Positions 33,079 through 48,080 of a stretch of DNA of 64,000 nt are shown here, one piece after another; positions within the stretch are counted from its first letter, which is position 1; each line of letters starts with the position of its first letter. The notes beneath the pieces are model-generated. The model was not told where the DNA came from and made no database searches. It worked only from the letters and a program-made list of their open reading frames with translations. Source of the stretch: Planctomycetota bacterium (GTDB taxonomy: Bacteria > Planctomycetota > UBA1135); assembly GCA_045047305.1 (NCBI GenBank), contig JASFYO010000036.1, forward strand, positions 14,326-78,325, given 5' to 3'. A program made the translations under genes and the position numbers.

Positions 33079-33491
33079 GCCAGCAGTGCAGCGCCTAAGA
33101 GGTAAACCGCATGCGCAGCGCCAAGCACCGTGAGGTCATAAGGTTTCCACTGCCAACTTCGGCGCTTTCTGCGCATCACCCAAGCAATGCTTGCTGCTTC
33201 TATGTTCCAAAACCATAACCAAGCCGCCACAAGCGCCACAACCCAGCCTAAGGTGTTGCCATCTAACTGAGAATCACTGAGACCCAAAGCACCGGATGCA
33301 TAAAGCACATAGCCTCCGCCTAGGCTGACCACCCGCGCCAGCAATAAAAGTTTCACCGTAGGGCGGAAGCTACGCCCTATCGTGAACCAGATGACCCACC
33401 AATGCAGGAAAAGGACAATCGGGACCAGGATGGGATGAAGGCAGGCGTGGAACAGTTCCGCTAACGGGCTCACGCCAAGGCCTCCTGGCAA
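33075..33491 (-). CDS. Hypothetical 4-helix membrane protein
   Basis: The product is 138 aa and hydrophobic. It has a 4-nt ATGA overlap with the downstream gene. Confidence 0.55.
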   Translation of the reverse strand: MPGGLGVSPLAELFHACLHPILVPIVLFLHWWVIWFTIGRSFRPTVKLLLLARVVSLGGGYVLYASGALGLSDSQLDGNTLGWVVALVAAWLWFWNIEAASIAWVMRRKRRSWQWKPYDLTVLGAAHAVYLLGAALLA

Positions 33492-33778
33492 CGCGAGCGT
33501 AATTCCTCGATAGTGAAGAGTCCGGTATCGTGGCCGTCATCGAACAGCACGCGATAAGCGTAGCGGCCGACGGGTTGCATATCCTTTAATCCAATGTCTT
33601 CCGGAACCTTTTCCGGATCCACTTGGCGCGCTCCGGTGATTTCATTCACGCAAAAAGCACAAGGGCAACTAATGCGTAACTCGCGAATGCCTAAGGCACT
33701 CACGAGTCCGTCCGACCAGGTAAACCTTAATTGGTCACCTTCCCGCTTTAGGCCGGTAAGCCGGGAGTCCATCGCCAA
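33470..33778 (-). CDS. DUF971 family protein (gamma-butyrobetaine-hydroxylase-like N-terminal domain)
   Basis: The motifs LRISCPCAFCVNEITG and YRVLFDDGHDTGLF match the DUF971 pattern. Confidence 0.65.
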   Translation of the reverse strand: MAMDSRLTGLKREGDQLRFTWSDGLVSALGIRELRISCPCAFCVNEITGARQVDPEKVPEDIGLKDMQPVGRYAYRVLFDDGHDTGLFTIEELRSRCQEALA

Positions 33779-33793
33779 GCTCGACCTTCGAGG

Positions 33794-34537
33794 TCAGGCT
33801 TCCATCTCCCGATCTTCTTGCGGCGATTTATCGTAACGCGCACGCACATTTTGCCGACCCATGTCGCGCAAGCGCAGGGAAGACTTACGCAGCCCAAGAT
33901 CATGCGCTTTGGAGACTACGCTTTTCACCGTTCGGTTTAAGTGATCGGCAATCGAAAGATTATCTTGTTCCGGGTAAAGTCGCCGAAGCTCCTCCACCTC
34001 CTCCGGACGCCAACGTGGCATCTTGACTGGAGGTCCAGAGCCAGCGCGGCGCTGGTAGCCCTTGTCTTTCGCTAGACAAAGTTCCTTCGCCTTTTCTTCG
34101 ATTCGATCCGCAGGGCGGCCAAGGATTAACGAAACGTCTTCAGTGGCGCGGGTGCCATAAAAACGCTTCAGGAGTTGCAGGTCAGCCGATGTCCAAGCGC
34201 GCTGTTGCACTTCGCCGCGAAGCTGGTGCACCTTGCGTTCAATCTCTCCGACAGGTCGGCGCAGAATGCGGGCGATGACATCGAAATCCGTAGCGCCAAG
34301 ATAGCCTTTCAGCTTGCGCACTTCCTTCGCTGTCCACGGGCCCATTTGGGCCTCGCCTTCAAAAACTTTGCCAATCATGCGGCGGACACTCTGCACTGTG
34401 CGGTTCAATTCCTGCGCAATCTGAACTTCTGTTTTGAAGCCATACATGCGTCGCAACCTTTCAATTTCCGGATAGGACCATCGTCCTTTCCGGCGACCTT
34501 GAGGGTTTGGGGAGTTCATTCCGTCAGATGCGGTCAT
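33794..34537 (-). CDS. Protein made of four tandem Myb/SANT-like helix-turn-helix repeats
   Basis: Four ~55-60-aa repeats are present: GRWSYPEIERLRRMYGFKTEVQIAQELNRTVQSVRRMIGKV; GPWTAKEVRKLKGYLGATDFDVIARILRRPVGEIERKVHQL; RAWTSADLQLLKRFYGTRATEDVSLILGRPADRIEEKAKEL; PRWRPEEVEELRRLYPEQDNLSIADHLNRTVKSVVSKAHDL. Confidence 0.6.
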   Translation of the reverse strand: MTASDGMNSPNPQGRRKGRWSYPEIERLRRMYGFKTEVQIAQELNRTVQSVRRMIGKVFEGEAQMGPWTAKEVRKLKGYLGATDFDVIARILRRPVGEIERKVHQLRGEVQQRAWTSADLQLLKRFYGTRATEDVSLILGRPADRIEEKAKELCLAKDKGYQRRAGSGPPVKMPRWRPEEVEELRRLYPEQDNLSIADHLNRTVKSVVSKAHDLGLRKSSLRLRDMGRQNVRARYDKSPQEDREMEA

Positions 34538-34647
34538 CGCAGTTGATTCTCGCTCGGGTTCCAGGGAGCGGGGTGGGGTGTGGAGTCAAACTCCACGTGT
34601 GTTCCAGTATCAGACAATTCATGGCCTCCGTGCAATGAAAAATCGTG

Positions 34648-36402
34648 CTAAGTCTTGTGGGAACCTACGCTTTCGACAACTTTCTGCCATGCCTGCGAGG
34701 TCAAATCATCCAAAATGCCTAAAGCATCCTTAGATGTACTCGCACGCGCAGCCTGTCGCGCAGTTTCCCGTAAAGACTCAATATCGACCTCTCGCAGCAA
34801 GGCTTTAATTTCTGGGACAAAAAGTGGGGACATGGAGAGGCCTCCAAAGCCCACTCCTGCGAGGAAAAACGCTCCTGCGGGCTGTCCGGCCATCTCGCCA
34901 CAAACCGAGGCTGGGACGCCAGCTTCTTGGCAAACCCTTGCGATGTAACGCAAGACGCGCAAATTCGCCGGATGATAGGGTTGATACAAATCGGAGACCC
35001 AAGGATTATCGCGGTCAACCGCAAACAAGTATTGAGTGAGGTCATTGGTGCCTACGGAAATGAAATCCACCTCCTTCACCAGGTCCGGCAAGGCCATGGC
35101 GGCGGCAGGAACTTCAATCATCACCCCAAAACGCACGCCCAGGTCTTCCGTACCGGCGATCGCGTAGAGCAAATCCTTCGCTTGGCGCACCTCCTCCACC
35201 GTGGTCACCATGGGCAACATAATGTTGACGCCACCATGCCCCCGGCATTCGCGCAATGCCTGCAGTTGCATCAGAAATAAATCTTGCCATTTCAAGCTCA
35301 AACGCAATCCGCGCCAACCCAATGCAGGGTTCGCTTCTTCCGGAGTGCTGAAGTAGCGAAGCGGCTTGTCTCCACCGATGTCCAGAGTGCGAAAGGTGAC
35401 GGTTTTGCCAGGAAAGCAGTTTAGCACCGAACTGTAGATTTCTTTCTGCTCCTCCACCGATGGGAAGGATGGGCGTTCCATATAAGCAAACTCAGTACGA
35501 AACAATCCAACTCCGCTAACCGTTTCCAAATCGAACATGTCCAAATCACGTGGCGACTCAATGTTCACCAAGATTTTGACTTCGGTGCCATCCGCGGTGT
35601 GTCCGGCTTCTTTTGCGGCATCGGCCAAGACATCGCGTACGTGCGAGAGTTCCGAGGAGCGGGTGAGTGCAGCTTCTTGCTCTTCGGTGGTTGCGCCGAG
35701 AATGACCGTAGCGCTATCACCGTAAACCACACAAGGTTGGCCAGAACGTGCCCGTTCATCGACTCCTTCCATACCGGTCACGGTTGGAATGCCATAACTA
35801 CGCGCGATCACTGCGCCGTGGCTGTAACGTCCTCCACGCGAACAAATGATGGCGGCGATTTTTTCGCGCGGATAGCTCACCACCAAAGTTGGGGTCAGCT
35901 CTTCCGCAACCAATACCAAACTTCCAGAGCCAACACTACGCGCCGCCTCAACATCGCTTTCGCTGAGTTGCTCGAGCACGGAATTCCATGGATCGCGCAA
36001 GTCGGCGGCCCAGGATTTCATGTCGCCACCTTCTAAGCTATCAAACAACTTGCCGAACTTATCCAGCAGGGCTTGAATGGCTGATTCTGGTGCCATCAGC
36101 TCGTCCATCACCCAGCGACGCAAATCCTTAACCGCTTCCGGGTCCATCAACACTGCAGCTTGGGCGGCGTAAATGGCAGCATCTTGCAGACCAAGTTCTT
36201 TCGCCGTGGCTGCTTGGATTTCCTCAAGCTTCTTAAGCGCAGCCGTTCGCGCATCCGTAAGGATTTTCCACGACGGCTCGGCATCGTGCGCATCGATGCG
36301 ACGCAAGGGAATGCGCCTTTTGGTGTGAGTTAGGGCTACGAACACGGAGCCAACCCCCACACCAGGTGCGATGTACGTTCCGTTTAGCTCGATGCGTTCC
36401 AA
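34648..36402 (-). CDS. ptsI: Phosphoenolpyruvate-protein phosphotransferase (PTS enzyme I)
   Basis: The phosphohistidine loop is GGRYSHGAVIARSYGIPTV. The PEP-binding barrel has FISVGTNDLTQY and VCGEMAG. At 584 aa with no GAF domain it matches EI rather than PtsP. Confidence 0.88.
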   Translation of the reverse strand: MERIELNGTYIAPGVGVGSVFVALTHTKRRIPLRRIDAHDAEPSWKILTDARTAALKKLEEIQAATAKELGLQDAAIYAAQAAVLMDPEAVKDLRRWVMDELMAPESAIQALLDKFGKLFDSLEGGDMKSWAADLRDPWNSVLEQLSESDVEAARSVGSGSLVLVAEELTPTLVVSYPREKIAAIICSRGGRYSHGAVIARSYGIPTVTGMEGVDERARSGQPCVVYGDSATVILGATTEEQEAALTRSSELSHVRDVLADAAKEAGHTADGTEVKILVNIESPRDLDMFDLETVSGVGLFRTEFAYMERPSFPSVEEQKEIYSSVLNCFPGKTVTFRTLDIGGDKPLRYFSTPEEANPALGWRGLRLSLKWQDLFLMQLQALRECRGHGGVNIMLPMVTTVEEVRQAKDLLYAIAGTEDLGVRFGVMIEVPAAAMALPDLVKEVDFISVGTNDLTQYLFAVDRDNPWVSDLYQPYHPANLRVLRYIARVCQEAGVPASVCGEMAGQPAGAFFLAGVGFGGLSMSPLFVPEIKALLREVDIESLRETARQAARASTSKDALGILDDLTSQAWQKVVESVGSHKT

Positions 36403-36410
36403 AGCTTACC

Positions 36411-37877
36411 TCAACTGCTCACGACCGCAGCTTGCGGACGCGTCCAAGAATCCATCTTGTTTTGCATGACCGAGATGAGTTGATCGACTGCCACGCGTTC
36501 CTGCGCCATCGAATCCCGCTCACGCAGAGTGACGGTTCCATCAGTCAATGATTCACCATCGATGGTGATACAAAAAGGCGTACCAATCTCATCCTGACGG
36601 CGATAACGGCGTCCAATCGATTGATTCTCCTCGATGGCAGTGCGGAACTGCTTGCGCAACATGGCTTCGACTTCGGCTGCCTTCTCCGGCATGCCATCCT
36701 TTTTCACCAAAGGAAAAACCGCAACCGTGACTGGTGCGATTTTCGGGTGAAAGCGTAATACCACACGCTGCTCTTTGCCTTCTCCTTCTTCATCGTATGC
36801 ATCGACGAGGAAAGTCATGGCCGTACGATCGCAACCGGCAGCAGGCTCAATCACGTAAGGCGAAATGTGCTCGTTCTCTTGATTGTCAAACCAAGTTAAG
36901 GAAGTACCGCTCGCTTCCGAGTGCTTCTTCAAATCATAGTCAGTGCGATTCGCAATGCCCTCCAACTCGGACCAGCCGAATGGAAAGAGGTATTCCACAT
37001 CGCCACAGCCGGCGGCATAGTGCGCCAACTCATCTTGCTCATGCTCACGCATGCGTAACTTTTCTGGATTCACGCCAAGATCCAAGTACCACTGAAAACG
37101 TTCCTTCTGCCAATATTCATACCACTTTGGCGCTTCTTCCGGACGGCAGAAAAATTCCATCTCCATTTGCTCAAACTCACGCGTGCGAAACACAAAATTG
37201 CCCGGGGTGATTTCGTTGCGGAAACTTTTACCAATCTGCGCGATGCCGAAGGGCAGTTTCTTGCGCGTGGAAGTGACCACGTTATTGAAGTTAATGAAAA
37301 TGCCTTGGGCCGTTTCCGGGCGCAGATACGCCACCGAAGCACTGTCCTGCAACGCACCAACGTGGGTTTCAAACATCAAGTTGAACTGGCGGACATCGGT
37401 CCAATCGTCGGTGCCGGAAACCGGACACTTGATTTTCTCATCCATGATGAGCTGACGCAGGCCTTCATTGTCGGAGATGACGGCATTCAACTTGGCGGTC
37501 AAGGCCTCCACGCGATCCATCTTGCCCTTCTTGCGATACTTCTCGATCTTTTTTTCGACCAAATGATCCGCACGATAACGGGCCTTAGAGGTTTTGTTAT
37601 CAATCAGAGGGTCCGAAAAACCGCCGACGTGGCCGGAAGCGCGCCAAACATCGGGCGATTGAATGATGGCAGAGTCCAAGCCAACAACATCCTGGCGTGA
37701 GTAGACCATGGCTTCCCACCAAGCATCTTTCACGCGGCGTTTCAGCTCCACGCCCAGCGGGCCCCAATCGTACGTAGCCCCTTGTCCACCATAGATTTCC
37801 GACGCTGGGAATACGAATCCCCTGCGCTTGCACAGGGAGACAATCTTGTCCATCACATTGGGAGCGGGCTTAGCCAT
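36411..37877 (-). CDS. glyQS: Glycine--tRNA ligase, homodimeric (GlyQS) type
   Basis: The N-terminus is MDKIVSLCKRRGFVFPASEIYGGQGATYDWGPLG. Class II motifs and a C-terminal anticodon-binding domain are present. Confidence 0.9.
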   Translation of the reverse strand: MAKPAPNVMDKIVSLCKRRGFVFPASEIYGGQGATYDWGPLGVELKRRVKDAWWEAMVYSRQDVVGLDSAIIQSPDVWRASGHVGGFSDPLIDNKTSKARYRADHLVEKKIEKYRKKGKMDRVEALTAKLNAVISDNEGLRQLIMDEKIKCPVSGTDDWTDVRQFNLMFETHVGALQDSASVAYLRPETAQGIFINFNNVVTSTRKKLPFGIAQIGKSFRNEITPGNFVFRTREFEQMEMEFFCRPEEAPKWYEYWQKERFQWYLDLGVNPEKLRMREHEQDELAHYAAGCGDVEYLFPFGWSELEGIANRTDYDLKKHSEASGTSLTWFDNQENEHISPYVIEPAAGCDRTAMTFLVDAYDEEGEGKEQRVVLRFHPKIAPVTVAVFPLVKKDGMPEKAAEVEAMLRKQFRTAIEENQSIGRRYRRQDEIGTPFCITIDGESLTDGTVTLRERDSMAQERVAVDQLISVMQNKMDSWTRPQAAVVSS

Positions 37878-38289
37878 GACCGCGTGATTCTAACTGCTCC
37901 CGCAAGTCAGCAATCACACCGTCGCGGTCGTTCTCAATCCGCTGTTTTAGCTCCACGGGCACTCCAGTCTCTGGATCGTGCTTAGCCCCCCATTGTGCGA
38001 GATCAATGAGAATTGGCACTAGGTCGAGGCCCTTCCTGGTGAGCGAATAAATTTTGCGGCGGCCATCCTCAGGGTCGGCAGCACAGGCGACGATGCCTTG
38101 CTCCGTCAAACATTGCAAGCGATCGCTCAGCACATTGGTAGCAATGCCCTCACCGGAGTTTTCGAACTCTGAAAAGCGTTGCGAGCCAAACATGACCATG
38201 TCGCGGACCACTAGCATCGTCCAGCGGTCGCCGAGCAAATCGAGGCAAAACGAAATGGGACATGCGGAGCGACGATCCTGCAGCGGCAT
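37870..38289 (-). CDS. HxlR-family winged-helix transcriptional regulator
   Basis: CPISFCLDLLGDRWTMLVVRDM is the HxlR signature. The 3' end overlaps the glyQS start by 8 nt. Confidence 0.85.
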   Translation of the reverse strand: MPLQDRRSACPISFCLDLLGDRWTMLVVRDMVMFGSQRFSEFENSGEGIATNVLSDRLQCLTEQGIVACAADPEDGRRKIYSLTRKGLDLVPILIDLAQWGAKHDPETGVPVELKQRIENDRDGVIADLREQLESRGHG

Positions 38290-38311
38290 TTCATGATTCT
38301 ACCAGATTTTA

Positions 38312-38354
38312 GCTTGCACATCGCAAGCGTTTATTATAGCTTTCATATCGCAAG
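38312..38354. promoter_or_regulatory. Candidate operator in the hxlR/GST divergent region
   Basis: An inverted repeat GCTTGCacatcGCAAGC lies at 38312..38328. The octamer ATCGCAAG occurs twice (38320..38327 and 38347..38354), 27 bp apart. Confidence 0.3.
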
Positions 38355-38383
38355 TGATAATCCCTGCCCTCTGGGCCACCAAA

Positions 38384-39019
38384 ATGACACAGCTCAAGCT
38401 TTACACTCTTCCCCTTTCACCCTTCAATACCAAGGTCCGGTTGGCGCTGAAACTCAAAGGCCTGACCTACGAAGAGGTCAAATTCTCCGGCTTTGATGAC
38501 CGTGACCCAGTCGTGGAGGTCTCCGGTCAGCCACTGACTCCCGTACTCGTCGACGGCGACAAAGCCATCTACGATTCTTTCGGAATCCTGCGCTACCTCG
38601 ATGCCAACTTCCCTGGCCCGCGACTCTTTTCCTCCAACCGGGAGACCATGCAAAGGATTCAAGAGTGGGAACGCTTTGGTGCAGAGCTTGGCGGCATTAT
38701 TAGCATGGTTTTAACTCAGGCTTTCAACGACAAAATCGACGACCAAGCCACCGCACAGGCACAAGCCTTGCTTGATACTGTCCCGCAAGCTCTCGAAGAT
38801 GCGCTTGCCGATTCAGATTACCTGATGGGCGACGTCATCACCGCTGCCGACTTAACCGTGGTGCCCTTTCTTCGCTTTCCAATTTGGGATGCGGATGACG
38901 TGGATTTTCCGCTGGCTAAGTTTGTTGCCGAACGCTTGACCCTCAGCGCAAAGTTCTCCAGAGTTCATGCCTGGGTTGCACGGGTAATGGAATTGGATCG
39001 CGAAGTGGTTGCGAACTAG
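38384..39019 (+). CDS. Glutathione S-transferase family protein
   Basis: MTQLKLYTLPLSPFNTKVRLALKLKGL is a thioredoxin-like N-domain, followed by an alpha-helical C-domain. The gene is divergent from the HxlR regulator. ATG 38384 is preferred over the track start at 38354. Confidence 0.8.
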   Translation: MTQLKLYTLPLSPFNTKVRLALKLKGLTYEEVKFSGFDDRDPVVEVSGQPLTPVLVDGDKAIYDSFGILRYLDANFPGPRLFSSNRETMQRIQEWERFGAELGGIISMVLTQAFNDKIDDQATAQAQALLDTVPQALEDALADSDYLMGDVITAADLTVVPFLRFPIWDADDVDFPLAKFVAERLTLSAKFSRVHAWVARVMELDREVVAN

Positions 39020-39035: not shown

Positions 39036-39075
39036 AACAGCCCGGCCTACCGGAATGGTGGACCGGGCTGTTTTC
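39036..39075 (+). terminator. Rho-independent terminator after the GST gene
   Basis: Stem ACAGCCCGG (39037..39045) pairs with CCGGGCTGT (39063..39071) and is followed by TTTT. Confidence 0.6.
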
Positions 39076-39166
39076 AAGCATTTGCTTTTACTGATACACA
39101 TAAATGGCTCATGAATCGACGCGTATTTTCGCTGCCCACCATCCCCCCTCATTACGCGATTAGCGA

Positions 39167-40675
39167 TTAATCTTCCAAGTGAATTTGCATATTGGAGGAG
39201 AGTGATAACTCAGTAAACACCTCTCCCCCTCCCTTTTCCAAGAAAACAGCTACTACCATTTTGTCATTAGGATTTCCCCATGGCAATGTTCCCCGGCCGA
39301 ACTCATCGCACGTTATTTCTGGATAAACACGGAACCAAGGATAATCCTGAAAGGGTTGCACCAAAACCTTGGCATTTCGCGCTACCAATCCCTCTGAATC
39401 ATAAATCTGGAACGAAATCCCAGGGTTCTCAGAACCTAACTTTCCCTCCATTATCCATTCCAACGGGACGGCTTCAGAAAAAACAATTTCATTCAGCGTC
39501 AATTCTTCTGAATAATATTCGCCAGAGGGGTGAACAATCTCAAGCAAATATCGGCTCCCGCTAGGCATTTCTGCGGCAAAGGAACCCGATTTGTCTAATT
39601 TAAAAGAAGATCGCGCCACTCTTGTTTCCACGCCGTTTGCGTCACGCTTCCCAGTTAAGGAAAATCCTTTACGATGATCATCACCAGAAAAATCACTCCC
39701 ATCATTACTCAAAAGTACGGATACGTTAACAGAATATTCAGAGGATGGGAGGGTTGAAACCACCTTGCCATGAAGCACTGGTTTCGGGGCCAACTCCAAA
39801 ACGACATCTGGTAGTGGGCCAGGACTTACATCCATTTTGAAAGAAGTTGATGAAAACCCGGCAGCGTTTACTTTCGCAATCATTATTCCAGAAACTGGGG
39901 AATCAACTTCGCAATTGCCATTCGGGCCCGAAACTGCATGAACATTTATTATGGGAAATCCGTCCTCTTCGCACAAAGATTTATATTGGGCTAGGATAGG
40001 ATCTGGATGGTTGCTCGGATATGGGGATATCCTTTTTTTATTCAGAGTTGCTACCTCATTAGTATATTTCCTCCAACCCTCCTCCGAAACAAATGACATC
40101 GATACGGAAATCTCATCTACCTTTAACTTTGTAACTGAGTTCCTCGCCGAGATTTGAAAATGAGACAAAAATGGCAATGCCAAATTTAGACTATTCCCTG
40201 TTGCAGACCAAATCAAATTTTCAACAGGGCTGGAATAAGTAGAAAACCCGTTAACAGTAGGAACCTCATAAGAAACCGACTTATCTCCGGATTTCAACAA
40301 AAAGCTTTCAACCACATTGCCTGCCTCTGGATCGTCCACAAGGACGTCCAATCTAGTTTTTACAGATTGGAGTCCTAAACTGCGAAGGGCAATCACCTTT
40401 GCCCCAGTAGCCATGTCTGTAATATTCAGTTTTAGCCTAGGAGAAAGGCTTTGCCTAATGAACTTTGCGGACAATGCTGCATCCCCATTTTCCTCAATTG
40501 ACCTTGCCCCCCCCACCAATAGATAGTCCCTCCCTTCTGAGGAAGAGTTTTCCTTCATCAACAACCAAGAAAGCAGGAACACTAAGAAAAGTATTCCTGC
40601 AATGAGTGCAGTGCGAGATGACAAGTTACGGAGCCCCACCGACTCCCGGATCTCCGACTGTGCCCTGGCTCCCAT
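39167..40675 (-). CDS. Signal-anchored beta-rich hypothetical protein, low-GC, containing an in-frame G8 tract
   Basis: The anchor is RTALIAGILFLVFLLSWLLM, followed by Ser/Asn/Val-rich beta-type sequence. The start is uncertain. ATG 40675 overlaps the upstream gene by 50 nt. GTG 40639 and TTG 40624 (1 nt after the upstream stop) are alternatives. The track start at 40735 overlaps by 110 nt. Sampled 60-nt lines are 40-52% GC against 53-60% elsewhere. Confidence 0.7.
   Translation of the reverse strand: MGARAQSEIRESVGLRNLSSRTALIAGILFLVFLLSWLLMKENSSSEGRDYLLVGGARSIEENGDAALSAKFIRQSLSPRLKLNITDMATGAKVIALRSLGLQSVKTRLDVLVDDPEAGNVVESFLLKSGDKSVSYEVPTVNGFSTYSSPVENLIWSATGNSLNLALPFLSHFQISARNSVTKLKVDEISVSMSFVSEEGWRKYTNEVATLNKKRISPYPSNHPDPILAQYKSLCEEDGFPIINVHAVSGPNGNCEVDSPVSGIMIAKVNAAGFSSTSFKMDVSPGPLPDVVLELAPKPVLHGKVVSTLPSSEYSVNVSVLLSNDGSDFSGDDHRKGFSLTGKRDANGVETRVARSSFKLDKSGSFAAEMPSGSRYLLEIVHPSGEYYSEELTLNEIVFSEAVPLEWIMEGKLGSENPGISFQIYDSEGLVARNAKVLVQPFQDYPWFRVYPEITCDEFGRGTLPWGNPNDKMVVAVFLEKGGGEVFTELSLSSNMQIHLED
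40507..40514 (-). repeat. Poly-G(8) homopolymer tract inside the CDS (codons GTG GGG GGG GCA = VGGA)
   Basis: The plus strand reads accttgCCCCCCCCaccaat. Reading through the sequence I found only two G/C runs of 8, and this is one of them. Confidence 0.9.
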
Positions 40676-41315
40676 TTCCTGCGCCACCTGTACCGGGGGT
40701 TCCAATATTTCCGGGTGCCGCCCCGTTTCCACCAACTGCTAATCCATCTCCAGCGCCAGTGAGCAAAGCGTCGCCACCATTGCCGGCACTCCCTGCGCTG
40801 CCTCCACGGCCGCCATAGTTGTTCTGCCCCTCCGAAGATGATCCCGGATCCCCATCTCCTCCATCACCCCCGGTGCCTCCGGTGCCTCCATTTCCTGCAT
40901 GGGCACATCCTTTCCCGCCGGCAGCTACGCTTGCTGCCGCATTTCCCCCATGAGCACCATGTTGGCCGGGCGCGCCATTCCCGCCGTTAAATCCAGCAGC
41001 TCCGTTTCCCCCGTCTCCCCCATTGCCGCCAAATCCTCCGATTGCATAGCCGGATTCGCCATTCTTCACAACAACGAGAGCTGGAGGCCCTCCAGTGGGT
41101 ACCCCACCTGGTCCTCCAGCCGCACCACTTGAAGAGGGGCTATTCCCAGCCCCTCCAGAATTGCCGTTACCAGGAATGTCGGAGAGAGCGTCTTGGTCGT
41201 TGTGAATAGCAGCACATTCGGCTTTGGTTAATGTATTACCAAACGGTGTTGATTGCAATCCTACCCTAAGCAAGCTGGAACCTAGAATCACGAGGGAAAG
41301 CGTAGATTTCTTCAT
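40626..41315 (-). CDS. Secreted glycine-rich (GGxGG / PGRS-like) repeat protein
   Basis: A signal peptide (MKKSTLSLVILGSSLLRVGLQ) is followed by ~170 aa of GGFGGNGGDGGNGAAGFNGGNGAPG...GNGGTGGTGGDGGDGDPG...GTPGTGGAGNGSQG. The antisense Pro-rich ORF 40606..40818 is its shadow. Confidence 0.75.
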   Translation of the reverse strand: MKKSTLSLVILGSSLLRVGLQSTPFGNTLTKAECAAIHNDQDALSDIPGNGNSGGAGNSPSSSGAAGGPGGVPTGGPPALVVVKNGESGYAIGGFGGNGGDGGNGAAGFNGGNGAPGQHGAHGGNAAASVAAGGKGCAHAGNGGTGGTGGDGGDGDPGSSSEGQNNYGGRGGSAGSAGNGGDALLTGAGDGLAVGGNGAAPGNIGTPGTGGAGNGSQGTVGDPGVGGAP

Positions 41316-41331
41316 TTCTTCATTTCTTCAT
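41308..41331 (-). repeat. Perfect 3x tandem octamer (ATGAAGAA)3 that includes the start codon of the Gly-rich gene
   Basis: The plus strand reads ttcttcat x3 at 41308-15, 41316-23 and 41324-31. On the coding strand the first two copies form ATG AAG AAA TGA mini-ORFs (MKK*). Each mini-ORF's stop overlaps the next ATG. Confidence 0.9.
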
Positions 41332-41393
41332 AATAGCGCCACTGACTTAAATCACAGTAAGGAATATGTAAAAAAGCCTCCACCCCATGATTA

Positions 41394-41775
41394 TTACGCT
41401 GTCTGCTTGCGAATGAATCGAACAAAATGGGAGTTGCAGTGAAAATATGGGCAAGAATAAAAATACGTGTAGCGTGGTAACACCAACAAAGTAGCGGGGA
41501 GAGTGAGGGTCTTACTCGATCGACTGCAACGAAACTCAGGCAACGGCCCTTCGGATGGTCTCCAGGAGAATTCCCATTCGGCATAGACCTTACTGCGGAA
41601 GTTGATTTTCACTTTAGCATCGCGCCATGCACGACCAGCAACAATGTCGATGCCATCCGCACCACCGGCGCCCCCCCCACGGCTAAACAGGTTGCAGTCA
41701 TGGACAAACTCTGACCTTAATCATGAGGCACAATTCCTGGTGGAAATACCAAATGCTCCAGCACCTCTGGATAAG
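41394..41775 (-). other. Unassigned 380-460 bp region with long open alternate frames; possible decayed or phase-off gene
   Basis: No convincing intact CDS is present. One minus frame is open from 41716 to 41394. An ATG at 41701 precedes a G8 tract and stops after 30 codons at 41609. See the findings for detail. Confidence 0.3.
41681..41688 (-). repeat. Poly-G(8) homopolymer tract, 7 codons downstream of ATG 41701
   Basis: The plus strand reads ccggcgCCCCCCCCacggc. This is the second of the two 8-nt G/C runs in the window. Confidence 0.9.
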
Positions 41776-42699
41776 TCAAAAACACCGCGACATAAGTTCC
41801 GCTGCCCTGCGGGTGCACCTCCACCCCATCGGCTGCTCTTCCCCTTGACAAATCTTGAAGCGAAAATCGTGGTAGGACATGCGGTTGTCTTGACGTAAGG
41901 AGCCGATAAAAAAACCATCCGGATAGAACTCCAACTCCTTCCATGATTGATGCAGACTCATCCCATATCCGCCCCCCAGGGCACTAGCCTCGGTGCAAAG
42001 ATTACCTCTAGGCATGCGCTCCTCCACCCATGGCGGTAAGCGATCAAGGAAATCCTTCGAACGACTGCCCCTGGCCTTGATCGTAATCAGCGCCTCGGTG
42101 GTGGAGCGGAGCAAGCTGCCGTCAGGGTGAAATAAAAGTAAGTGGATATCCTCCTCCCCCGGCATTTTCACGAAACGCTCGACGAAGGTAAACGCGCCTT
42201 GGACCTCAAACGCTTCCTCCGTGGCCGAACCTGCAACAGCATTCAGCACATAGATGCGGTACCACCCCTCCGGAAGCTGATCAATCAACAGGCGCCCGTC
42301 CACCGACTCGCCTTGATACTGTTTTTGATCTCCAGCAGTCCAGGTTTCGAATGCACCGACAGCCAAACGCCACAGCTCAATCGTCCCGGAAACGGGTAGC
42401 TGCGTCGCAGCATCGAAAAAATGCAATTCAAGCGCGCTAGAGCCCAACTCTACCGGCTCGGGCTCGGCTTCCTCCCACTCCAGGAACTCCTCCTCAGGCA
42501 GTGCCTCAATCTCCTCCTTCACCGTTTCTTGCTGACGTTCGAGTTGCGGACGACGGGCATCGGCCACCGTAGGTGCTGACTCCAGTTCCGTTGGAGCCGG
42601 GCGCTCGGCAAAAGGGGGCATCGCGGTCGCCGGTTCGTCCTTCCACATCACCACGATGAGGGCAAGCAGGACGATGATGATGACCAGAAGACGGCGCAT
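41776..42699 (-). CDS. Signal-anchored hypothetical protein with one or two beta-sandwich-like modules
   Basis: The anchor is MRRLLVIIIVLLALIVVMW, followed by a Pro/Glu-rich linker and then DGRLLIDQLPEGWYRIYVLN-type modules. The last ~15 residues (WRCTRRAAELMSRCF) look non-native. See the frameshift finding. Confidence 0.65.
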   Translation of the reverse strand: MRRLLVIIIVLLALIVVMWKDEPATAMPPFAERPAPTELESAPTVADARRPQLERQQETVKEEIEALPEEEFLEWEEAEPEPVELGSSALELHFFDAATQLPVSGTIELWRLAVGAFETWTAGDQKQYQGESVDGRLLIDQLPEGWYRIYVLNAVAGSATEEAFEVQGAFTFVERFVKMPGEEDIHLLLFHPDGSLLRSTTEALITIKARGSRSKDFLDRLPPWVEERMPRGNLCTEASALGGGYGMSLHQSWKELEFYPDGFFIGSLRQDNRMSYHDFRFKICQGEEQPMGWRCTRRAAELMSRCF

Positions 42700-42808
42700 A
42701 GGAGGGCAACGGTGGAGTTGGGATTTGGTTCAAGCCAAGGATGGAGAATGCTCTGGATTTACCCAGAAAATCGGCTGAACCGCCGCCCCACTGTACCGTT
42801 AGCCACTC

Positions 42809-44875
42809 ATGGTTCCCATCCTCCTCCTCATCCTCGCAGCGCAAACTGCACAAGAACCGGCCCAAAGCCCCGAGGTCTTGGTCACTGCCTCGGCGTTTCC
42901 CGAGGATCCGCTGCAGCAACCATTTTCTTCGGAAACGCTGGATGCAACCTGGTTGCGTACGCGAGCCAGGACCATCCCTGAAGCTCTCCAAATGCTGCCT
43001 GGTGTGATGGTGCAGAAAACGGCATCAGGACAGTCGTCGCCCTACCTACGGGGCTTCACAGGCTTCCGCACCCAGATGCTTGTCGACGGAATCCCTTTGA
43101 ACCATGCGGCTATGCGCTCCGGCCCGAACCAGTACTGGAGCACCTTGGATGCCCTAACCGTGGAGCGCCTGGAATTGGTGCGCGGAACCTCGAGTGTCCT
43201 GTATGGATCCGATGCCATTGGCGGCACCGTGAATGCCATCAGCCGGCGCGCAAAAGTTGGCGGCGAAGGTGTGCGCTTGGGCGGCGGAAGCTTCACTCGC
43301 TATTCCAGCGCAGACAATGCTTGGACCCAACGCGCAGAAGTGTCCCTAAGTTCTGGATCGGAGTGGGGATTCCTCGGTGGGTCTACGGTTTCCAACTATG
43401 GAGATCTGAGATCGGGTGGCGGCGAACTTCCTGAGACCGGCTACTCCCAATTCAACGGAGATTTTCGCTTTGACCGCTACCTTAGTAACGGCGTGGTGTG
43501 GACCACGGCAGGCCAAACAGTGCGCCAAGTGAATGTTCCACGTACCCACAAAACCATTTTCGCAGTTCCATTCCAGGGCACCAGTGTCGGTAGTGAGTTG
43601 CAGCGCGACCAGGATCAGCGCAGGGACCTTTTCTACAGCCGACTATCGTGGGATCGTGGCAGCAATTGGATGAAACGCGGTGAAGTCACCTTGAGTTACC
43701 AACGCCACAAAGAAATCCGCGATCGAATCCGCAGCGGAGACCGCCGGGATCTGCAAGGATTCGATCTCAACGATCTGGGCTTAACCGCACGTTTTGAAAG
43801 CGATTCAAGCTCTTCTGGCGTTTGGTCATGGGGTACCGAGCTACACCGCCAAACCGCAGATAGCTTCCGCGATAACTTCGTTGCGGGAAGCTTCACTGGC
43901 TCCGCCATTCAAGGCGCAATTGGCGACAACAGCTCTTACGACAGCGCTGCGTTTTACCTTCAGAGAGAAATGTTCGTACGCGAAGACATCAGCTTGATTC
44001 CAGGCTTACGCGCAAGTTGGTTCTCGTTGCAATCCGATCGCGTGGATAACCCAGACCCGGGCGGTCCAGCGATTTTGCAATTGGATGAAAGTTGGACTGC
44101 TTTAACTGGCAGTTTGCGTGGTGTATGGGATCTCGGCCAAGAAAAAACAGTTTATGCCGGTTTATCGCAAGGCTTTCGCGCACCGAACTTGTCGGACCTA
44201 ACCTCGCTCGATGCCACGAGTGCGGTGGAAACTCCATCGCCCGATTTGAATCCAGAAAACTACTTGCAGCTCGAGATTGGAAGCAAGGGACGCGATGGTC
44301 GTTGGAGTTGGCAGACCTCGGTCTACCAAACTTGGATTGATAACATGATTGTCCAATCCCCTACCGGAGCCTTCATCGGTGGCACCCCCGAGGTGCAAAA
44401 AAGCAATGCCGGAGATGGCTGGGTACACGGCGTAGAAGTCGATGTGCAAATGGAAATCGATGCGCAGTGGACAGCATTCGCAACCGGTAGTTGGATGAAC
44501 GGCGAAGTCGATCAAGTCCAGTTGCCCGGTGGAGCTACCAGCCGCGAACCACTTAGCCGTTTGGCACCGCTACAGGGCACGACCGGTGTACGCTGGCAGC
44601 AAAACCAAGGTTCTTGGTGGGGAGAGGCCTGGATGTGGGCTGTCGATAACCAAGATAAGCTTGCGCTCCGTGACACCACCGACACCTCACGCATTCCAGC
44701 CGGCGGCACTCCAGGATTCACCATATTTGGGCTATCCGGAGGCGTGAAAATCAACGAAAATGCACGCTGGTCGTTATCTCTCGAGAACCTCGGCGATAAG
44801 AACTATCGCGTCCACGGTTCTGGTTTGAACGGCCCTGGCTTTAACTTAGTGACCACCTTCGAATTGAACTTCTGA
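42809..44875 (+). CDS. TonB-dependent outer-membrane receptor
   Basis: Plug motifs are IPEALQMLPGVMV, SPYLRGF and DGIPLN. A long beta-barrel follows, ending in the terminal aromatic TTFELNF. Confidence 0.88.
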   Translation: MVPILLLILAAQTAQEPAQSPEVLVTASAFPEDPLQQPFSSETLDATWLRTRARTIPEALQMLPGVMVQKTASGQSSPYLRGFTGFRTQMLVDGIPLNHAAMRSGPNQYWSTLDALTVERLELVRGTSSVLYGSDAIGGTVNAISRRAKVGGEGVRLGGGSFTRYSSADNAWTQRAEVSLSSGSEWGFLGGSTVSNYGDLRSGGGELPETGYSQFNGDFRFDRYLSNGVVWTTAGQTVRQVNVPRTHKTIFAVPFQGTSVGSELQRDQDQRRDLFYSRLSWDRGSNWMKRGEVTLSYQRHKEIRDRIRSGDRRDLQGFDLNDLGLTARFESDSSSSGVWSWGTELHRQTADSFRDNFVAGSFTGSAIQGAIGDNSSYDSAAFYLQREMFVREDISLIPGLRASWFSLQSDRVDNPDPGGPAILQLDESWTALTGSLRGVWDLGQEKTVYAGLSQGFRAPNLSDLTSLDATSAVETPSPDLNPENYLQLEIGSKGRDGRWSWQTSVYQTWIDNMIVQSPTGAFIGGTPEVQKSNAGDGWVHGVEVDVQMEIDAQWTAFATGSWMNGEVDQVQLPGGATSREPLSRLAPLQGTTGVRWQQNQGSWWGEAWMWAVDNQDKLALRDTTDTSRIPAGGTPGFTIFGLSGGVKINENARWSLSLENLGDKNYRVHGSGLNGPGFNLVTTFELNF

Positions 44876-44913
44876 AATCAACCACTACCCCGCCGCGGCA
44901 CCTGCTGAAAGCC

Positions 44914-45615
44914 GTGCTTGGATCGGTGACCTTCCACGTCGCGGTTGGGGTAGGGTTGTTAAGTACCGCATGGTGGTGGGCTTCGGATGTGGATGAACAT
45001 CAACCTCCGAAGCTTGCGGTCGCTCTAAAGGAAGAAGTTCCAGAGGTCAGCGAAGACGAGCCGGATTTCGAAGTCCAACCGCCAATCGAACTGGAACCAG
45101 TGGTACTACCGGTAGTGGAAGTGGAGGCTTCCCCTTTGGCTGAGTTGGAGGAACTACCGCCGGCAAAGGAATACCTGGCGGTGCGCCCATGGATGCCGCA
45201 ACAGTTGCGCTATCGGCCGACCACGCTTCCTCCCCATTTGCGTGAACAGACCAAGCCGGTGGAAGAGCAAAGGCTGACTGATTCCGCCGTTTCCAATACC
45301 GCAGTCCCTCGAGCGCCGGCACCACGGGCCTCGGTTTTACTGGCACCGCAGATCGATGCAGAGCAATGCCCTCCTCCGGAGTACCCACGGCGTGCCCGGC
45401 GTATGCGCTGGGAAGGTGTAACCCAATTAATTGTGACGGTCGATGTGAATGGAAATCCCATCGCAATCAAAGTATCTGTTTCCAGCGGCCACCAAATCCT
45501 CGATGATGCCGCAATCCAGGCGGTTCAGACCTGGCATTTTCACCCTGCAAACCGAGACCAGGTAGCCGAGGTTGGCGACTTACTGGTACCGATTCGGTTT
45601 GATATTAAGGAATAA
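44914..45615 (+). CDS. tonB: TonB-family energy transducer
   Basis: It has a GTG start, an N-terminal helix (VTFHVAVGVGLLSTAWW), a Pro/Glu-rich spacer and the C-terminal YPRRARRMRWEGVTQLIVTVDVNGNP...HQILDDAAIQAVQTWHFHPA. Confidence 0.8.
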   Translation: MLGSVTFHVAVGVGLLSTAWWWASDVDEHQPPKLAVALKEEVPEVSEDEPDFEVQPPIELEPVVLPVVEVEASPLAELEELPPAKEYLAVRPWMPQQLRYRPTTLPPHLREQTKPVEEQRLTDSAVSNTAVPRAPAPRASVLLAPQIDAEQCPPPEYPRRARRMRWEGVTQLIVTVDVNGNPIAIKVSVSSGHQILDDAAIQAVQTWHFHPANRDQVAEVGDLLVPIRFDIKE

Positions 45616-45676
45616 GCTTCCTGTGCTTCCGTTTGCTTCCGCCGAGTCGTAAGTGAAATACGCCGAGCCCCATCTA

Positions 45677-47362
45677 CTAGTAAACGATAGAAGACGGAAG
45701 GCTCAGCCCGTGAAGTTTTGAGTTGGTGCTTCGCTTCATGGTGGATTCCAAGGTTAGAAACTCAACCGGAATGGAATAAGTTTGCACCTCAGCTGAATTC
45801 CGAATCTGAACCTGGAAAAGCTGGCCTTGGGCGTCCGTCGCATCCGCACCCACGGCCACAGAAGGCCCTCTTGGCGACGATCTCTGTAGATAGAACCGCA
45901 CCAAAGTAGATCCACTCCAAGGAAGACTGATGGTGATGGTCCCATCGGTTTCAAAATAGGACGTTTCAACTTTTCTACCGCTTGGATTTCCATCGGCGTC
46001 CACCTTCCAAAGTCGTGCATAGAAATCCCATTCGTCGGACAAGCCAGCAAAGGCATTCACCCTTAGCTGGATAGGGAAGCCTTCCTGAAGCACCACGGTT
46101 TCGTCTTGCATGAGGTTCAACACCTGAACCGTCATCTTGCCCACACATGAAATTTCCAGATCGAATAGAGGAGTGCGCCCAATCATGTGGATGATTCCCT
46201 TTTTACCGTCCTGAGCTACACCGCCGTTCAAATCGCGAACAGATGCATACTTCAAAAAAGAGCCGTATTCATCTTTCACCTTTATCTTGATTTGGTGCAA
46301 GATTCCGCGGGCATCTAAATCGGGGAGGATGACTTCTTTGGATCCCGAGGGAATAAACACCTCTTTCCAGCGATAGAGTTCTATTTTGGTACGAGCATGG
46401 CGAAGCACCAAATCCACATTCCCAGGCGGAACTTTCCGGAACGAATACCCTCCTTTCGAGCGGGACAGCCAGCGATCAACCAGGACCGCTTTGGAGATTT
46501 CACCTGCATCACCGACCATCTGCAATTCAAAATGGCTGGCCTTGAATTCCGGATCTAATAGAACTTTCCCCTCCACCCTCAGGGATTGCAATAGCGCGAA
46601 GCGGACTCCCCTATCGCCAACACTTACACTCCGACGGAAGCTCAGGAAACCCTTGCAACTCGCTTCCAGCAAGAGCTCTCCCTCGGCATCACTTCCCTTA
46701 ATTTCAAAGTTGCCGCGCGAGTCAGTGTAGGTCATCGATTCTGGCAGAGGCTCCCAACGCCTTTGTTGGGAGCCTTTTCGTGAAACCGATATTTTTGCCG
46801 CAGCCACACGATCTCCGTAAGCATCTAGCACCACCCCTGCGACCATGACGGGGAATACGTCGACCACAAAGTCCCCCAACGCGAACACCTTGTCCTTGGG
46901 ATCCCAACTAAAGTCAGCTTGAGCCCCGCGCGCAGGCCGGGTTTGAGTCTTGCGTATGGCAACCGCAAAGGTGCGAGTCGCCGGCAGCATCATGTATCGC
47001 TCAAGGGGGAAGTGAAAGTTGCCGCTGGCATCCGTCCGTAATTTGCGACGGTAGCGCACATCGCTTTTATCCGATTCAACCCTTATGCTTACTTTGAATT
47101 CGAGGTTTGAAGCTACCATCCCCTCAGCATTCAAAATCCGGCCCGACAAGACGTAACCTTCGGCAGACACATCGACTTCGCTTGGTTGTACCGTCGACTC
47201 ACGGGTCATGCTTATTGCCGGCAAGTCCGTTGCGTTGGGCCGCAGTGGCTCAAGCTTAATTTCAGGAGTATCCCCTTGGCTAGTTGGCGGTTCAGGCTGG
47301 ACAAACATGACCAATCCAATCACCCCAATCACTAACCCGAGCAGAAGAAAAGCCCTTTGCAT
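45677..47362 (-). CDS. Signal-anchored multi-beta-sandwich envelope protein, subfamily A (short member)
   Basis: The anchor is MQRAFLLLGLVIGVIGLVMFV. It shares the subfamily A landmarks LRVEGKVLLDPEFKASHF and LPDLDARGILHQIKIKVKD. Confidence 0.78.
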   Translation of the reverse strand: MQRAFLLLGLVIGVIGLVMFVQPEPPTSQGDTPEIKLEPLRPNATDLPAISMTRESTVQPSEVDVSAEGYVLSGRILNAEGMVASNLEFKVSIRVESDKSDVRYRRKLRTDASGNFHFPLERYMMLPATRTFAVAIRKTQTRPARGAQADFSWDPKDKVFALGDFVVDVFPVMVAGVVLDAYGDRVAAAKISVSRKGSQQRRWEPLPESMTYTDSRGNFEIKGSDAEGELLLEASCKGFLSFRRSVSVGDRGVRFALLQSLRVEGKVLLDPEFKASHFELQMVGDAGEISKAVLVDRWLSRSKGGYSFRKVPPGNVDLVLRHARTKIELYRWKEVFIPSGSKEVILPDLDARGILHQIKIKVKDEYGSFLKYASVRDLNGGVAQDGKKGIIHMIGRTPLFDLEISCVGKMTVQVLNLMQDETVVLQEGFPIQLRVNAFAGLSDEWDFYARLWKVDADGNPSGRKVETSYFETDGTITISLPWSGSTLVRFYLQRSSPRGPSVAVGADATDAQGQLFQVQIRNSAEVQTYSIPVEFLTLESTMKRSTNSKLHGLSLPSSIVY

Positions 47363-47387
47363 AGATGGAGTTTAGCAGGCTGTAGGT

Positions 47388-48080
47388 CTATTCAATTCCC
47401 AGAGAGGGTTGCTGTACGACAGCAAGGTCTTCTAGGCGTATCGCCGTGAGCATTCCCCCGTAAACGCAACCGGTATCTAGGCCGTAGGCAAGCGGCTCAC
47501 CGTCTTCGCTTTGGTGCATGCCAGCGGCAGATTGAGCGTGACCAAAGAGGACAAATTCGGGACCCTCCCAGGCTTCATGCCACAACGGAGCACCGGGACG
47601 GTCGTGGCAACGGCTGAGACGGATGATTTCGGCTGCTTGCATATCTTCGACCTTGCGCCCTGGGAGTACGGAAGCGTGAACCAAAATCCAATTACGTTGC
47701 GTGTTTGGCGCCGCCCATGCAGAGCCGTTACAAACACCGCGCAAAAAGTATTTTCGGCCTTGTAAAAAATCGAAAAACTCTTCGGCTACGGGAAGCGCAG
47801 AAGGGTCCATCTTGGCTTGGTTGTCGCCACGCAAATCGCCGCCATAGCCCGTTGCGGCACCTTGCTTCAACAAAGCCCGCTCATGATTGCCGAGAACCAT
47901 GTCGAAAGTATCGCCTAGGCCTTGCAGGATGCGTAATACCCCAACCGGGTCGGGGCCGCGGTGAAAAAGATCGCCGGCGGAGAGGAATCGATCACCAGGT
48001 TGCAGGTCGATAGTTGCTAACAGCAATGCCAACTCTTTTGCGCAACCGTGAACGTCGCCCACCACCCAGGTGGATGTCAT
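47388..48080 (-). CDS. PPP-family metallophosphoesterase (ApaH/PrpE-like)
   Basis: Motifs GDVHG, GDLFHRGPD and GNHE are present. ATG 48080 overlaps the pepF stop as ATGA. Confidence 0.82.
   Translation of the reverse strand: MTSTWVVGDVHGCAKELALLLATIDLQPGDRFLSAGDLFHRGPDPVGVLRILQGLGDTFDMVLGNHERALLKQGAATGYGGDLRGDNQAKMDPSALPVAEEFFDFLQGRKYFLRGVCNGSAWAAPNTQRNWILVHASVLPGRKVEDMQAAEIIRLSRCHDRPGAPLWHEAWEGPEFVLFGHAQSAAGMHQSEDGEPLAYGLDTGCVYGGMLTAIRLEDLAVVQQPSLGIE

Follow-up and report, generated by a model that had tools for sequence, protein, structure and literature searches.

The window analysed here is a 64,000-nt stretch from a Planctomycetota bacterium (UBA1135; assembly GCA_045047305.1, contig JASFYO010000036.1, positions 14,326-78,325, forward strand). 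It contains a low-GC islet situated between a GST gene and a gene encoding a TonB-dependent receptor. The features of the locus and its flanks are the following:

36400..37550, minus strand: divergent tract within GlyRS, with 89.9% identity to L084, L085 and L086 as against 99.3% in 32071..36320
38354..39019, plus strand: GST gene, the conserved left flank (Pfam GST_N_3, 2e-18)
39036..39077, no strand: terminator made up of a hairpin (inverted repeat I3) and a T-run, on which the GST and ORF485 genes converge
about 39100..42790 (3.7 kb), no strand: variable slot, probably a replacement-type flexible islet, with the GST gene on its left and the TonB-dependent receptor gene on its right
39167..40624, minus strand: ORF485 (QM477_07525), a 485-aa N-terminally anchored protein with a transmembrane helix, a disordered linker and tandem beta-sandwich domains
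40507..40514, minus strand: G8 tract inside ORF485, read as GTG GGG GGG GCA (VGGA); it encodes part of the disordered linker that follows the transmembrane helix
40626..41315, minus strand: Gly-rich gene, encoding a 229-aa secreted protein of Gly-X-X triplet runs, its stop 1 nt ahead of the ORF485 start
41306..41331, minus strand: perfect array of 3.2 copies of the octamer ATGAAGAA, located where the Gly-rich gene begins
41316..41775, minus strand: 460-nt non-coding spacer upstream of the two genes, with 40% GC in 41316..41500
41671..41678, minus strand: non-coding G8 tract, the second of the two (C8 when read on the plus strand), which precedes the start of the Gly-rich gene by about 356 nt
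41776..42699, minus strand: gene for a 307-aa N-terminally anchored hypothetical protein (QM477_07535), of window-like composition yet specific to this slot
42809..44875, plus strand: gene for the TonB-dependent receptor, which is conserved and flanks the slot on its right (Pfam Plug and TonB_dep_Rec_b-barrel; synteny in L082, L087, L090 and L091)

The limits of the slot were set by synteny. Collinearity with the relatives L082, L083 and L090 extends over window positions 30012..39018 and resumes at 42791, and the GST protein shares 97.7% amino acid identity with L084 and L085 and 85% with L082. The terminator, with arms of 16 nt and a complementarity of 88%, aligns with L082 and L090, with paired changes in the stem; since it is conserved with relatives, it lies outside the replaced DNA. 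On the other side, the earlier note had let the islet end at the GC-normal gene at 41776. The composition of that gene is indeed normal, yet the gene still forms part of the variable slot. It yielded no Pfam or NCBIfam match, and the proposal that its product is a relative of the ORF485 family was rejected with an hhalign probability of 1.4%.

When compared to relatives at the level of the genus, the slot showed a different content at the same position. L082, L083 and L090 (approximately 81% nucleotide identity) keep both flanks and carry DUF4394-like and FG-GAP genes in between, L081 bears a Kelch/glyoxal-oxidase-like gene in addition to DUF4394-like and FG-GAP genes, and the slot is empty in L087-L089 and L091, where GlyRS adjoins the receptor gene. 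All of the relatives' slot genes have signal-peptide-like starts. None of the three window slot proteins gave a tblastn match at any relative's locus examined, nor did the window slot retain remnants of the genes that the relatives have there. In this comparison, which the earlier note had proposed, the cassette composed of ORF485 and the Gly-rich gene was absent from the locus in every relative examined, its place being occupied by other content or by none. A second copy of this exact locus was found in none of the collections searched, and the metagenome scan with ORF485 came back empty.

Contigs of the same species were available from JGI 3300023500 and Logan SRR5189950, possibly one sample given a single mismatch in 5756 nt. 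Their core identity to the window is 99.3%, and both stop 10-15 nt past the GST stop codon. Along the left flank the identity forms a mosaic of 99.3%, 89.9% and 97.7%, with mostly synonymous changes. The codon differences in the GlyRS tract comprise 108 synonymous and 12 non-synonymous changes, and on this pattern the tract is, as far as sequence can tell, a recombination footprint between strains of the same species. This 10%-divergent tract is situated 1.5 kb away from the slot and not at its edge, the comparison covering the left flank only. The contig ends and the flank mosaic suggest that the slot content may vary by presence and absence within the species. The 15 nt past the GST stop in L084 and L085 were considered as proof of different slot content and rejected, as an indel distinguishes the spacers before the conserved terminator.

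The compositional analysis revealed that ORF485 has a GC content of 43.8% compared with 54.1% for the whole window, in line with the hand counts of the earlier note (about 40-52% for the 522-aa form and the 41.32-41.60 kb stretch against 53-60% elsewhere). It constitutes the lowest-GC 1460-nt window of the 64 kb, at about -4.9 SD. GC at third codon positions (GC3) was 0.41 in ORF485 (z -3.9) and 0.43 in the Gly-rich gene (z -3.4), in contrast to 0.584 +/- 0.045 in the 45 other genes, a drop of approximately 17 points that is limited to these two genes. The Gly-rich gene has a high total GC (59%) and is low at third codon positions only. Tetranucleotide deviation reaches its maximum for the window at the islet, with z +7.7 at 1.5 kb and +6.0 at 2.2 kb. 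Codon choice is deviant in both cassette genes as well, with GGG accounting for 35% of the cassette's Gly codons compared to 13% in the window's remaining genes. The windowed GC, codon-usage and k-mer statistics for which the earlier note had called thus all deviate in the cassette, and the deviation covers both genes of the cassette as well as the AT-rich leader, the 307-aa gene excepted. The analysis supports an islet that is real, compositionally foreign and coding for envelope or surface-type proteins.

The longest form of the first of these proteins, at 39167..40735 on the minus strand, comprises 522 aa; the public annotation places a TTG start at 40624, one nucleotide past an upstream stop codon, resulting in 485 aa. 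A signal-anchored Ser/Asn-rich protein had been predicted here, and the N-terminal transmembrane helix and the abundance of Ser (12.8%) and of Asn (5.2%), both roughly double the average of the other genes, agree with this. The AlphaFold2 model of ORF485 (pLDDT 88.5; 39 only when modelled from the single sequence) consists of a transmembrane helix, a linker and tandem beta-sandwiches. Foldseek searches with the model matched pilin- and adhesin-like proteins, the best being the TIE protein and the Gram-positive pilins BcpA, SpaA and RrgB, at low whole-chain TM-scores (0.15-0.25), while the search against BFVD (predicted viral protein structures) gave generic Ig-array matches only. In an exhaustive HMMER search 28 distant relatives were recovered, the closest with 35% identity, indicating a rare family; a word-indexed protein search found ORF485 itself only. 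The Pfam domain CarboxypepD_reg (PF13620) was matched at E<=0.01 by 24 of the 29 family members. ORF485 itself had no Pfam match at E<=0.1 and stays below the PF13620 gathering threshold, its likeness to this domain being one of fold only.

The second protein was described beforehand as secreted and glycine-rich, and its 33% Gly and signal-peptide-like N-terminal segment bear this out, secretion being predicted. Gly residues recur with a lag-3 autocorrelation of 0.34, compared to 0.34-0.43 across all four family members. The protein had no Pfam match, and PDB sequence searches with the protein and with a profile returned nothing meaningful; the word-indexed protein search gave zero matches and missed the query itself, as did HMMER. 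Neighbours of ORF485 homologues proved more informative. The Gly-rich protein is 50% and 37% identical to such neighbours in L093 and L095, respectively, with conserved Cys, His and Glu positions, and in L096 the ORF485 homologue also has a similar Gly-rich neighbour. The gene caller took the wrong frame for the Gly-rich homologue in L095. Three of the ORF485 relatives (P0122, P0125 and P0129) each adjoin a homologous Gly-rich gene on unrelated metagenome contigs with a GC content of 50-70%, and one of the four family members sampled (P0124, in L094) lacks such a neighbour. Judged by this homology, the two genes of the low-GC core form a conserved pair, rare and previously unannotated.

Upstream of the pair, the spacer at 41316..41775 presumably contains the promoter and leader. 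About 450 bp of decayed coding sequence had been suspected in this region, an idea that did not hold, as the coding score is positive in no frame. The spacer showed no Pfam or Rfam match and resembled neither other parts of the window nor the relatives or their slot genes. A pseudogene or a remnant of the relatives' slot genes was therefore rejected, there being neither coding signal nor similarity, and so was a non-coding RNA in 41250..41850, since Rfam matched none at E<=1. A scan for sigma-70 promoters performed no better than shuffles.

Regarding mobility, the islet contains no tRNA, flanking direct or inverted repeat, or Rfam match, the nearest tRNA (Gly) being located at 51874, and no integrase is present among the annotated neighbouring genes, here or in the relatives' gene calls. 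Annotation and repeat searches thus confirmed the earlier observation that integrase, tRNA and flanking direct repeat are missing. The three slot proteins had no Pfam, NCBIfam, PADLOC or PHROGs match, including none to phage, plasmid or defence-system proteins; scanning IMG/VR with P0001 and P0122 produced no match, and neither did tblastn against plasmids and phages. The signatures of an integrase- or tRNA-associated island and of a prophage are absent from the locus.

We consider it probable that 39100..42790 is a small replacement-type flexible islet holding a horizontally acquired two-gene envelope cassette, and that its repeats are most likely by-products. A fixed chromosomal slot would extend from the GST gene to the TonB-dependent receptor gene, its secreted or envelope proteins varying from lineage to lineage; in this genome it would hold the 307-aa anchored protein together with the acquired two-gene operon. 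The Gly-rich gene would come first and be translationally coupled to ORF485 across the 1-nt spacer, and their products may cooperate in forming an envelope or surface structure. Homologous recombination within the conserved flanking regions, and not an integrase, would have brought in the cassette or would mediate its exchange. The lack of mobility genes and insertion scars is what would be expected if the genes were native, fast-evolving and lineage-specific, with low GC reflecting relaxed selection or low expression and the slot differences reflecting loss in the relatives, and the window-like composition of the neighbouring 307-aa gene points the same way. However, homologues of the linked pair are found in unrelated contigs of 50-70% GC, the pair is missing at every relative's locus examined, the relatives have unrelated genes there rather than remnants, and the GC3 shift is restricted to the cassette's two genes, all of which makes a native origin unlikely. 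The source of the window is a MAG, and the change in composition is abrupt, as it would be in a chimera produced by assembly or binning, or if the contig had received a piece of a mobile element or prophage. Against this, both junctions are contained in one contig whose flanks are collinear with several independent assemblies, the PHROGs, PADLOC, phage, plasmid and IMG/VR searches were empty, the junctions are free of tRNA and repeats, and an integrase is lacking among the annotated neighbours. We regard this explanation as extremely improbable.

The repeats of the islet require separate consideration. Runs of at least eight G or C occur twice in the whole window, both inside the islet, where the sole perfect threefold tandem repeat is located too. 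The earlier note was right in assigning both G8 tracts to the islet and in describing a threefold tandem octamer at a start codon; the second tract, however, lies at 41671..41678 and not at 41681..41688. The number of such runs expected per 64 kb is 0.8-2.3 under Markov models of order 1-5, with P(>=2) of 0.2-0.69, whereas approximately zero octamer arrays like this one are expected and none appeared in 100 order-3 Markov simulations. Only the octamer array, and not the G8 tracts, therefore exceeds chance. The placement of all three repeats within 5.8% of the window has a probability of about 2e-4 under uniform placement, calculated post hoc. In the array, the first two ATGs open mini-ORFs that encode MKK followed by a stop, the TGA overlapping the next ATG, and the third ATG (41315) is the start of the gene.

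These repeats had been taken to resemble a contingency locus, in which hypermutable G8 tracts and the octamer array would switch or tune a surface module by slipped-strand mispairing. Several observations are compatible with this proposal. The in-frame G8 tract is near the 5' end of ORF485, where slippage to G7 is computed to bring a stop after 62 aa and slippage to G9 after 42 aa, so that switching by truncation is mechanically possible; three rare repeats are all located within the slot defined by synteny, and the perfect octamer array is above chance. A change in octamer copy number would alter the count of decoy ATGs and mini-ORFs before the true start. Nevertheless, chance alone would give about as many G8 tracts, and the coding one, situated in the disordered linker, is accounted for by the cassette's preference for GGG codons. 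Since an ATG is present in every octamer unit, the last ATG is in frame whatever the copy number, and the array cannot alter the reading frame of the Gly-rich gene. Three homologous cassettes, distant homologues in each case, have neither tract nor array at the equivalent places. Poly-G tracts known to switch cover a range of lengths of which eight G is the low end. On balance, the contingency reading is decidedly unlikely. Most likely, both the G8 tracts and the octamer array arose as by-products of mutation and do not form an evolved switch, the array resembling what a recent slippage duplication of the gene's first 8 nt would leave behind. This explanation covers the clustering of the repeats in part only, the non-coding G8 tract falling outside the codon-usage argument.

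Simple-sequence-repeat contingency loci are known from Neisseria, Haemophilus and Campylobacter (PMC5084427, PMC8355987). The present locus is similar to these in having a 5' poly-G tract in an envelope-protein gene, where a slip would truncate the product, and a short tandem repeat at a start codon, and it differs from them in that the tracts are not enriched, comprise only 8 G and are unconserved in homologues, and in that the octamer never loses frame. The more far-reaching idea of an undescribed two-component surface structure, in Planctomycetota and other bacteria, whose expression is stochastically switched or tuned via the in-frame G8 tract and the ATG-bearing octamer, is very unlikely. 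If true, simple-sequence contingency loci would for the first time be known from a free-living planctomycete; so far nothing found here supports such switching.

What the locus reveals is a gene pair composed of a secreted Gly-X-X triplet protein, which escapes standard searches, and an anchored beta-sandwich partner. The predicted string of beta-sandwiches in ORF485 is like the CarboxypepD_reg/transthyretin-like and CnaB-type arrays of Gram-positive pilins and adhesins, in contrast to which ORF485 has an N-terminal transmembrane anchor and not a sortase signal. For its partner, glycine-triplet proteins that form PGII/PPII helices include the snow-flea antifreeze protein and the phage gp38 adhesins. 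A PGII-sandwich model has also been put forward for the PGRS domains of mycobacterial PE_PGRS proteins (PMC9436101). The Gly-rich protein resembles this PE_PGRS/PGII type in its Gly content of approximately 30-37%, with stretches of 5-10 triplets in which each third residue is Gly (GGN GGD GGN GAA ...), in its predicted secretion or surface association and in its polymorphic genomic context. Unlike these proteins, it has conserved Cys and His residues and adjoins a dedicated anchored beta-sandwich partner; lacking a PE domain and any Pfam match, it is not a PE_PGRS protein.

With respect to the slot as a whole, the closest comparison is with the replacement flexible genomic islands described in aquatic prokaryotes by Lopez-Perez, Martin-Cuadrado and Rodriguez-Valera in 2014 (PMC4033161), which are tens of kb in size and contain glycosylation or cell-wall genes. 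In both cases conserved genes enclose a fixed position at which the gene content differs among related genomes, integrase and tRNA are absent, a flank (here the left one) is rich in mostly synonymous substitutions between strains of the same species, and metagenome contigs break at the edge. Exposed or secreted products are a further likeness, in our case by prediction only, from the signal-peptide-like or transmembrane N-termini of all slot genes and from the beta-sandwich array. The slot differs in being tiny (3.7 kb, 3 genes), in belonging to a planctomycete MAG and in that its within-species alternatives are deduced rather than directly seen. Planctomycetota would thus have very small replacement-type slots for envelope proteins, following the same population-level pattern as described for marine Alteromonas, Salinibacter and Haloquadratum.

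The low-GC islet between the GST gene (38354..39019, plus strand) and the TonB-dependent receptor gene (42809..44875, plus strand) of a Planctomycetota MAG is real. It is most likely a small replacement-type variable slot that holds a conserved pair of genes for predicted envelope proteins, acquired by horizontal transfer. Its elements were located as follows:

39167..40624, minus strand: ORF485, annotated form of 485 aa with a TTG start at 40624 (MFK5956279.1, locus tag QM477_07525)
39167..40735, minus strand: longest form of ORF485, 522 aa
40507..40514: first C8 tract (plus strand), inside ORF485, G8 on the minus strand
40626..41315, minus strand: glycine-rich ORF of 229 aa, upstream of ORF485, stop codon at 40626..40628
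41306..41331, minus strand: perfect octamer array of 3.2 copies (TRF)
41671..41678: second C8 tract (plus strand), non-coding
41776..42699, minus strand: 307-aa gene of normal composition (GC3 0.64)

A single nucleotide separates the stop codon of the glycine-rich ORF from the annotated start of ORF485. The inventory in the earlier note was largely correct for the ORFs, the octamer array at a start codon and the two G8 tracts, which are the only G/C runs of at least 8 in the 64 kb; the second tract, placed there at 41681..41688, lies 10 nt further left. The listed ORF of the flanking GST gene has a GTG start and 221 aa (window 38354..38383), and the gene calls in relatives are of 211 aa and begin at an MT(N/Q)LKLY motif, so that the ATG 30 nt downstream is probably the true start.

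The claim of deviating composition was borne out. ORF485 has a GC content of 43.8% compared to 54.1% for the window and is the lowest-GC 1460-nt segment of the 64 kb, about 4.9 SD under the mean, while the glycine-rich gene reaches 59% overall because of its GGN codons. GC3 is low in both genes, at 0.41 (z -3.9) in ORF485 and 0.43 (z -3.4) in the glycine-rich gene, against 0.584 +/- 0.045 in the 45 other window genes. Their glycine codons of choice are GGA and GGG, in contrast to GGC in the other genes, and both avoid the NNG/NNC codons preferred elsewhere in the window. Whatever the scale, the tetranucleotide deviation peaked on the islet, with z +7.7 for 1.5 kb and +6.0 for 2.2 kb. These figures confirm the low-GC islet, which in the strict sense comprises the two genes and an AT-rich leader (41316..41500, 40% GC).

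The relatives were chosen via a ladder of GlyRS homologues, and their contigs were compared with the window. L082, L083 and L090 (about 81% nucleotide identity) are collinear with 30012..39018, L082 and L090 also with 42791..45611, and between the flanks they carry genes for a DUF4394-like protein (347 aa) and an FG-GAP protein (557 aa). L081 (about 80%) has a Kelch/glyoxal-oxidase-like gene in addition to DUF4394-like and FG-GAP genes. In L087-L089 and L091 (about 78% and 70%) the slot is empty and GlyRS lies directly beside the receptor gene. These more distant relatives also lack the HxlR regulator and GST genes (window 37870..39019), so the GlyRS-receptor interval has been filled in nested steps. 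Slot content thus differs among relatives, and tblastn of the window's three slot proteins, the cassette proteins among them, against all compared relatives' loci gave no match; remnants of the relatives' slot genes were likewise searched for in the window and none found. Every slot gene of the relatives encodes a signal-peptide-like N-terminal segment. Homology with L082 and L090 persists through the terminator hairpin of the GST gene (39036..39077), so the replaced DNA spans about 39100..42790; the 307-aa gene, GC-normal as the earlier note had it, accordingly forms part of the replacement rather than marking the outer limit. As had been noted, the slot has neither a tRNA nor flanking repeats, and none of the annotated neighbouring genes is an integrase. 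A second variable slot was observed at 45612..47406, between TonB_C and Metallophos genes. It contains MFK5956284.1, an N-anchored CarboxypepD_reg-like protein of 561 aa that the relatives do not match at the nucleotide level; at this position L082 and L090 have a protein merely 25% identical and L087-L089 have nothing.

ORF485 had no match in Pfam, NCBIfam, PADLOC or PHROGs. An exhaustive HMMER search of 1.84 billion representative proteins returned 28 distant relatives, mostly of 460-520 aa, the best 35% identical, and 24/29 family members match Pfam CarboxypepD_reg. The AlphaFold2 model built with the family alignment was confident (pLDDT 88.5, pTM 0.76), with a transmembrane helix (residues 2-24), a disordered linker (27-59) and a row of beta-sandwich domains that includes one helical insert. 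Among PDB entries, Foldseek matched Gram-positive pilins and the TIE protein of B. anthracis best (probability 1.0), with low whole-chain TM-scores, as expected of multi-domain arrays; BFVD, a collection of predicted viral protein structures, yielded generic Ig-like arrays. The family members P0122 (L093) and P0125 (L095) each come after a gene for a glycine-rich secreted protein of about 230 aa, with 50% and 37% full-length identity, respectively, to the window's 229-aa protein and conserved Cys, His and Glu positions. After P0129 (L096) comes a comparable protein of 220 aa (37% Gly), and P0124 (L094) has no such neighbour. The contigs bearing these family members range from 50% to 70% GC; the pair is thus a conserved module moving between very different genomes. 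The gene caller took the wrong frame across the glycine-rich gene of L095 (1..736), and a HMMER-based search with the window's glycine-rich protein did not even return the query itself; the family is likely missed or mis-annotated systematically in databases. In L096 the cassette homologue is immediately preceded by an ECF sigma factor and a putative anti-sigma gene (2145..3007), and a similar pair lies within the slot region of L081 (2471..3762), a hint of envelope-stress-type regulation of these variable genes.

The earlier note had likened the islet to contingency loci of phase-variable surface proteins. The three repeats do fall within 5.8% of the window, a post hoc observation, and this clustering is notable and only partly accounted for by foreign composition. 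Markov simulations (order 1-5) predict 0.8-2.3 G/C runs of at least 8 per 64 kb, so the two observed are unremarkable. The in-frame tract (GTG GGG GGG GCA, VGGA) lies within the disordered linker of ORF485, where GGG makes up 35% of Gly codons vs 13% in other window genes, and is therefore likely a by-product of this preference. A switch there is mechanically possible, since slippage by +/-1 would cut the protein short at 42 or 62 aa; homologous cassettes have no tract or array at equivalent places. The octamer array exceeds chance expectation in simulations and must be a genuine slippage duplication of the first 8 nt of the glycine-rich gene. With an ATG in every unit and the last always in frame, a change in copy number could do no more than tune translation and would not switch it. 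On the minus strand, each of the first two ATGs begins a short MKK-stop ORF, the two standing in tandem, and the TGA of each overlaps the ATG that follows (ATGA). The true start is preceded by this layout of the termination-reinitiation type. With the G8 count at chance, homologous cassettes lacking repeats at the equivalent places and an array that cannot switch, the contingency interpretation is unsupported and rates as unlikely. Nor was there any sign of the approximately 450 bp of decayed coding sequence proposed upstream: 41316..41775 scored positive in no frame under the window's codon model, had no Rfam match at E<=1, resembled nothing in the window, the relatives or the other cassette loci, and its open frames, including a G9-corrected frame of 102 codons, had no Pfam match. 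The stretch is treated as the cassette's upstream non-coding region. Within it (41394..41705, minus strand), one additional G in the non-coding G8 tract would fuse 10 codons starting at an ATG (MTATCLAVGG) with an open frame of 92 codons, which opens with a Gly-rich motif (GAGGADGIDIVAG); the joined frame has neither coding signal nor family match.

Over 32071..36320, three same-species contigs, L084 (JGI 3300023500), L085 (Logan SRR5189950) and L086 (JGI 3300009408), share 99.3% identity with the window. L084 and L085, which both end 10-15 nt beyond the GST stop, differ by one mismatch in 5756 nt and may therefore derive from a single sample. Within GlyRS, a tract of 1.15 kb (36400..37550) is only 89.9% identical, its differing codons comprising 108 synonymous and 12 non-synonymous changes; between 37551 and the GST stop the figure is 97.7%. 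Nearly all changes being synonymous and identity just to the left being 99.3%, the tract appears to be an imported recombination tract. Lopez-Perez et al. (PMC4033161) describe a mostly synonymous substitution peak next to the variable region for replacement flexible genomic islands that are swapped through homologous recombination. The peak beside this slot would fit that description; the evidence is one-sided and comes from the left flank. Regarding the glycine-rich partner, Gly occurs at each third residue, in runs, in 4/4 of these proteins (lag-3 autocorrelation 0.34-0.43), a sequence signature known from PGII/PPII-helix proteins, PGRS domains among them (PMC9436101). The cassette protein has no PE domain.
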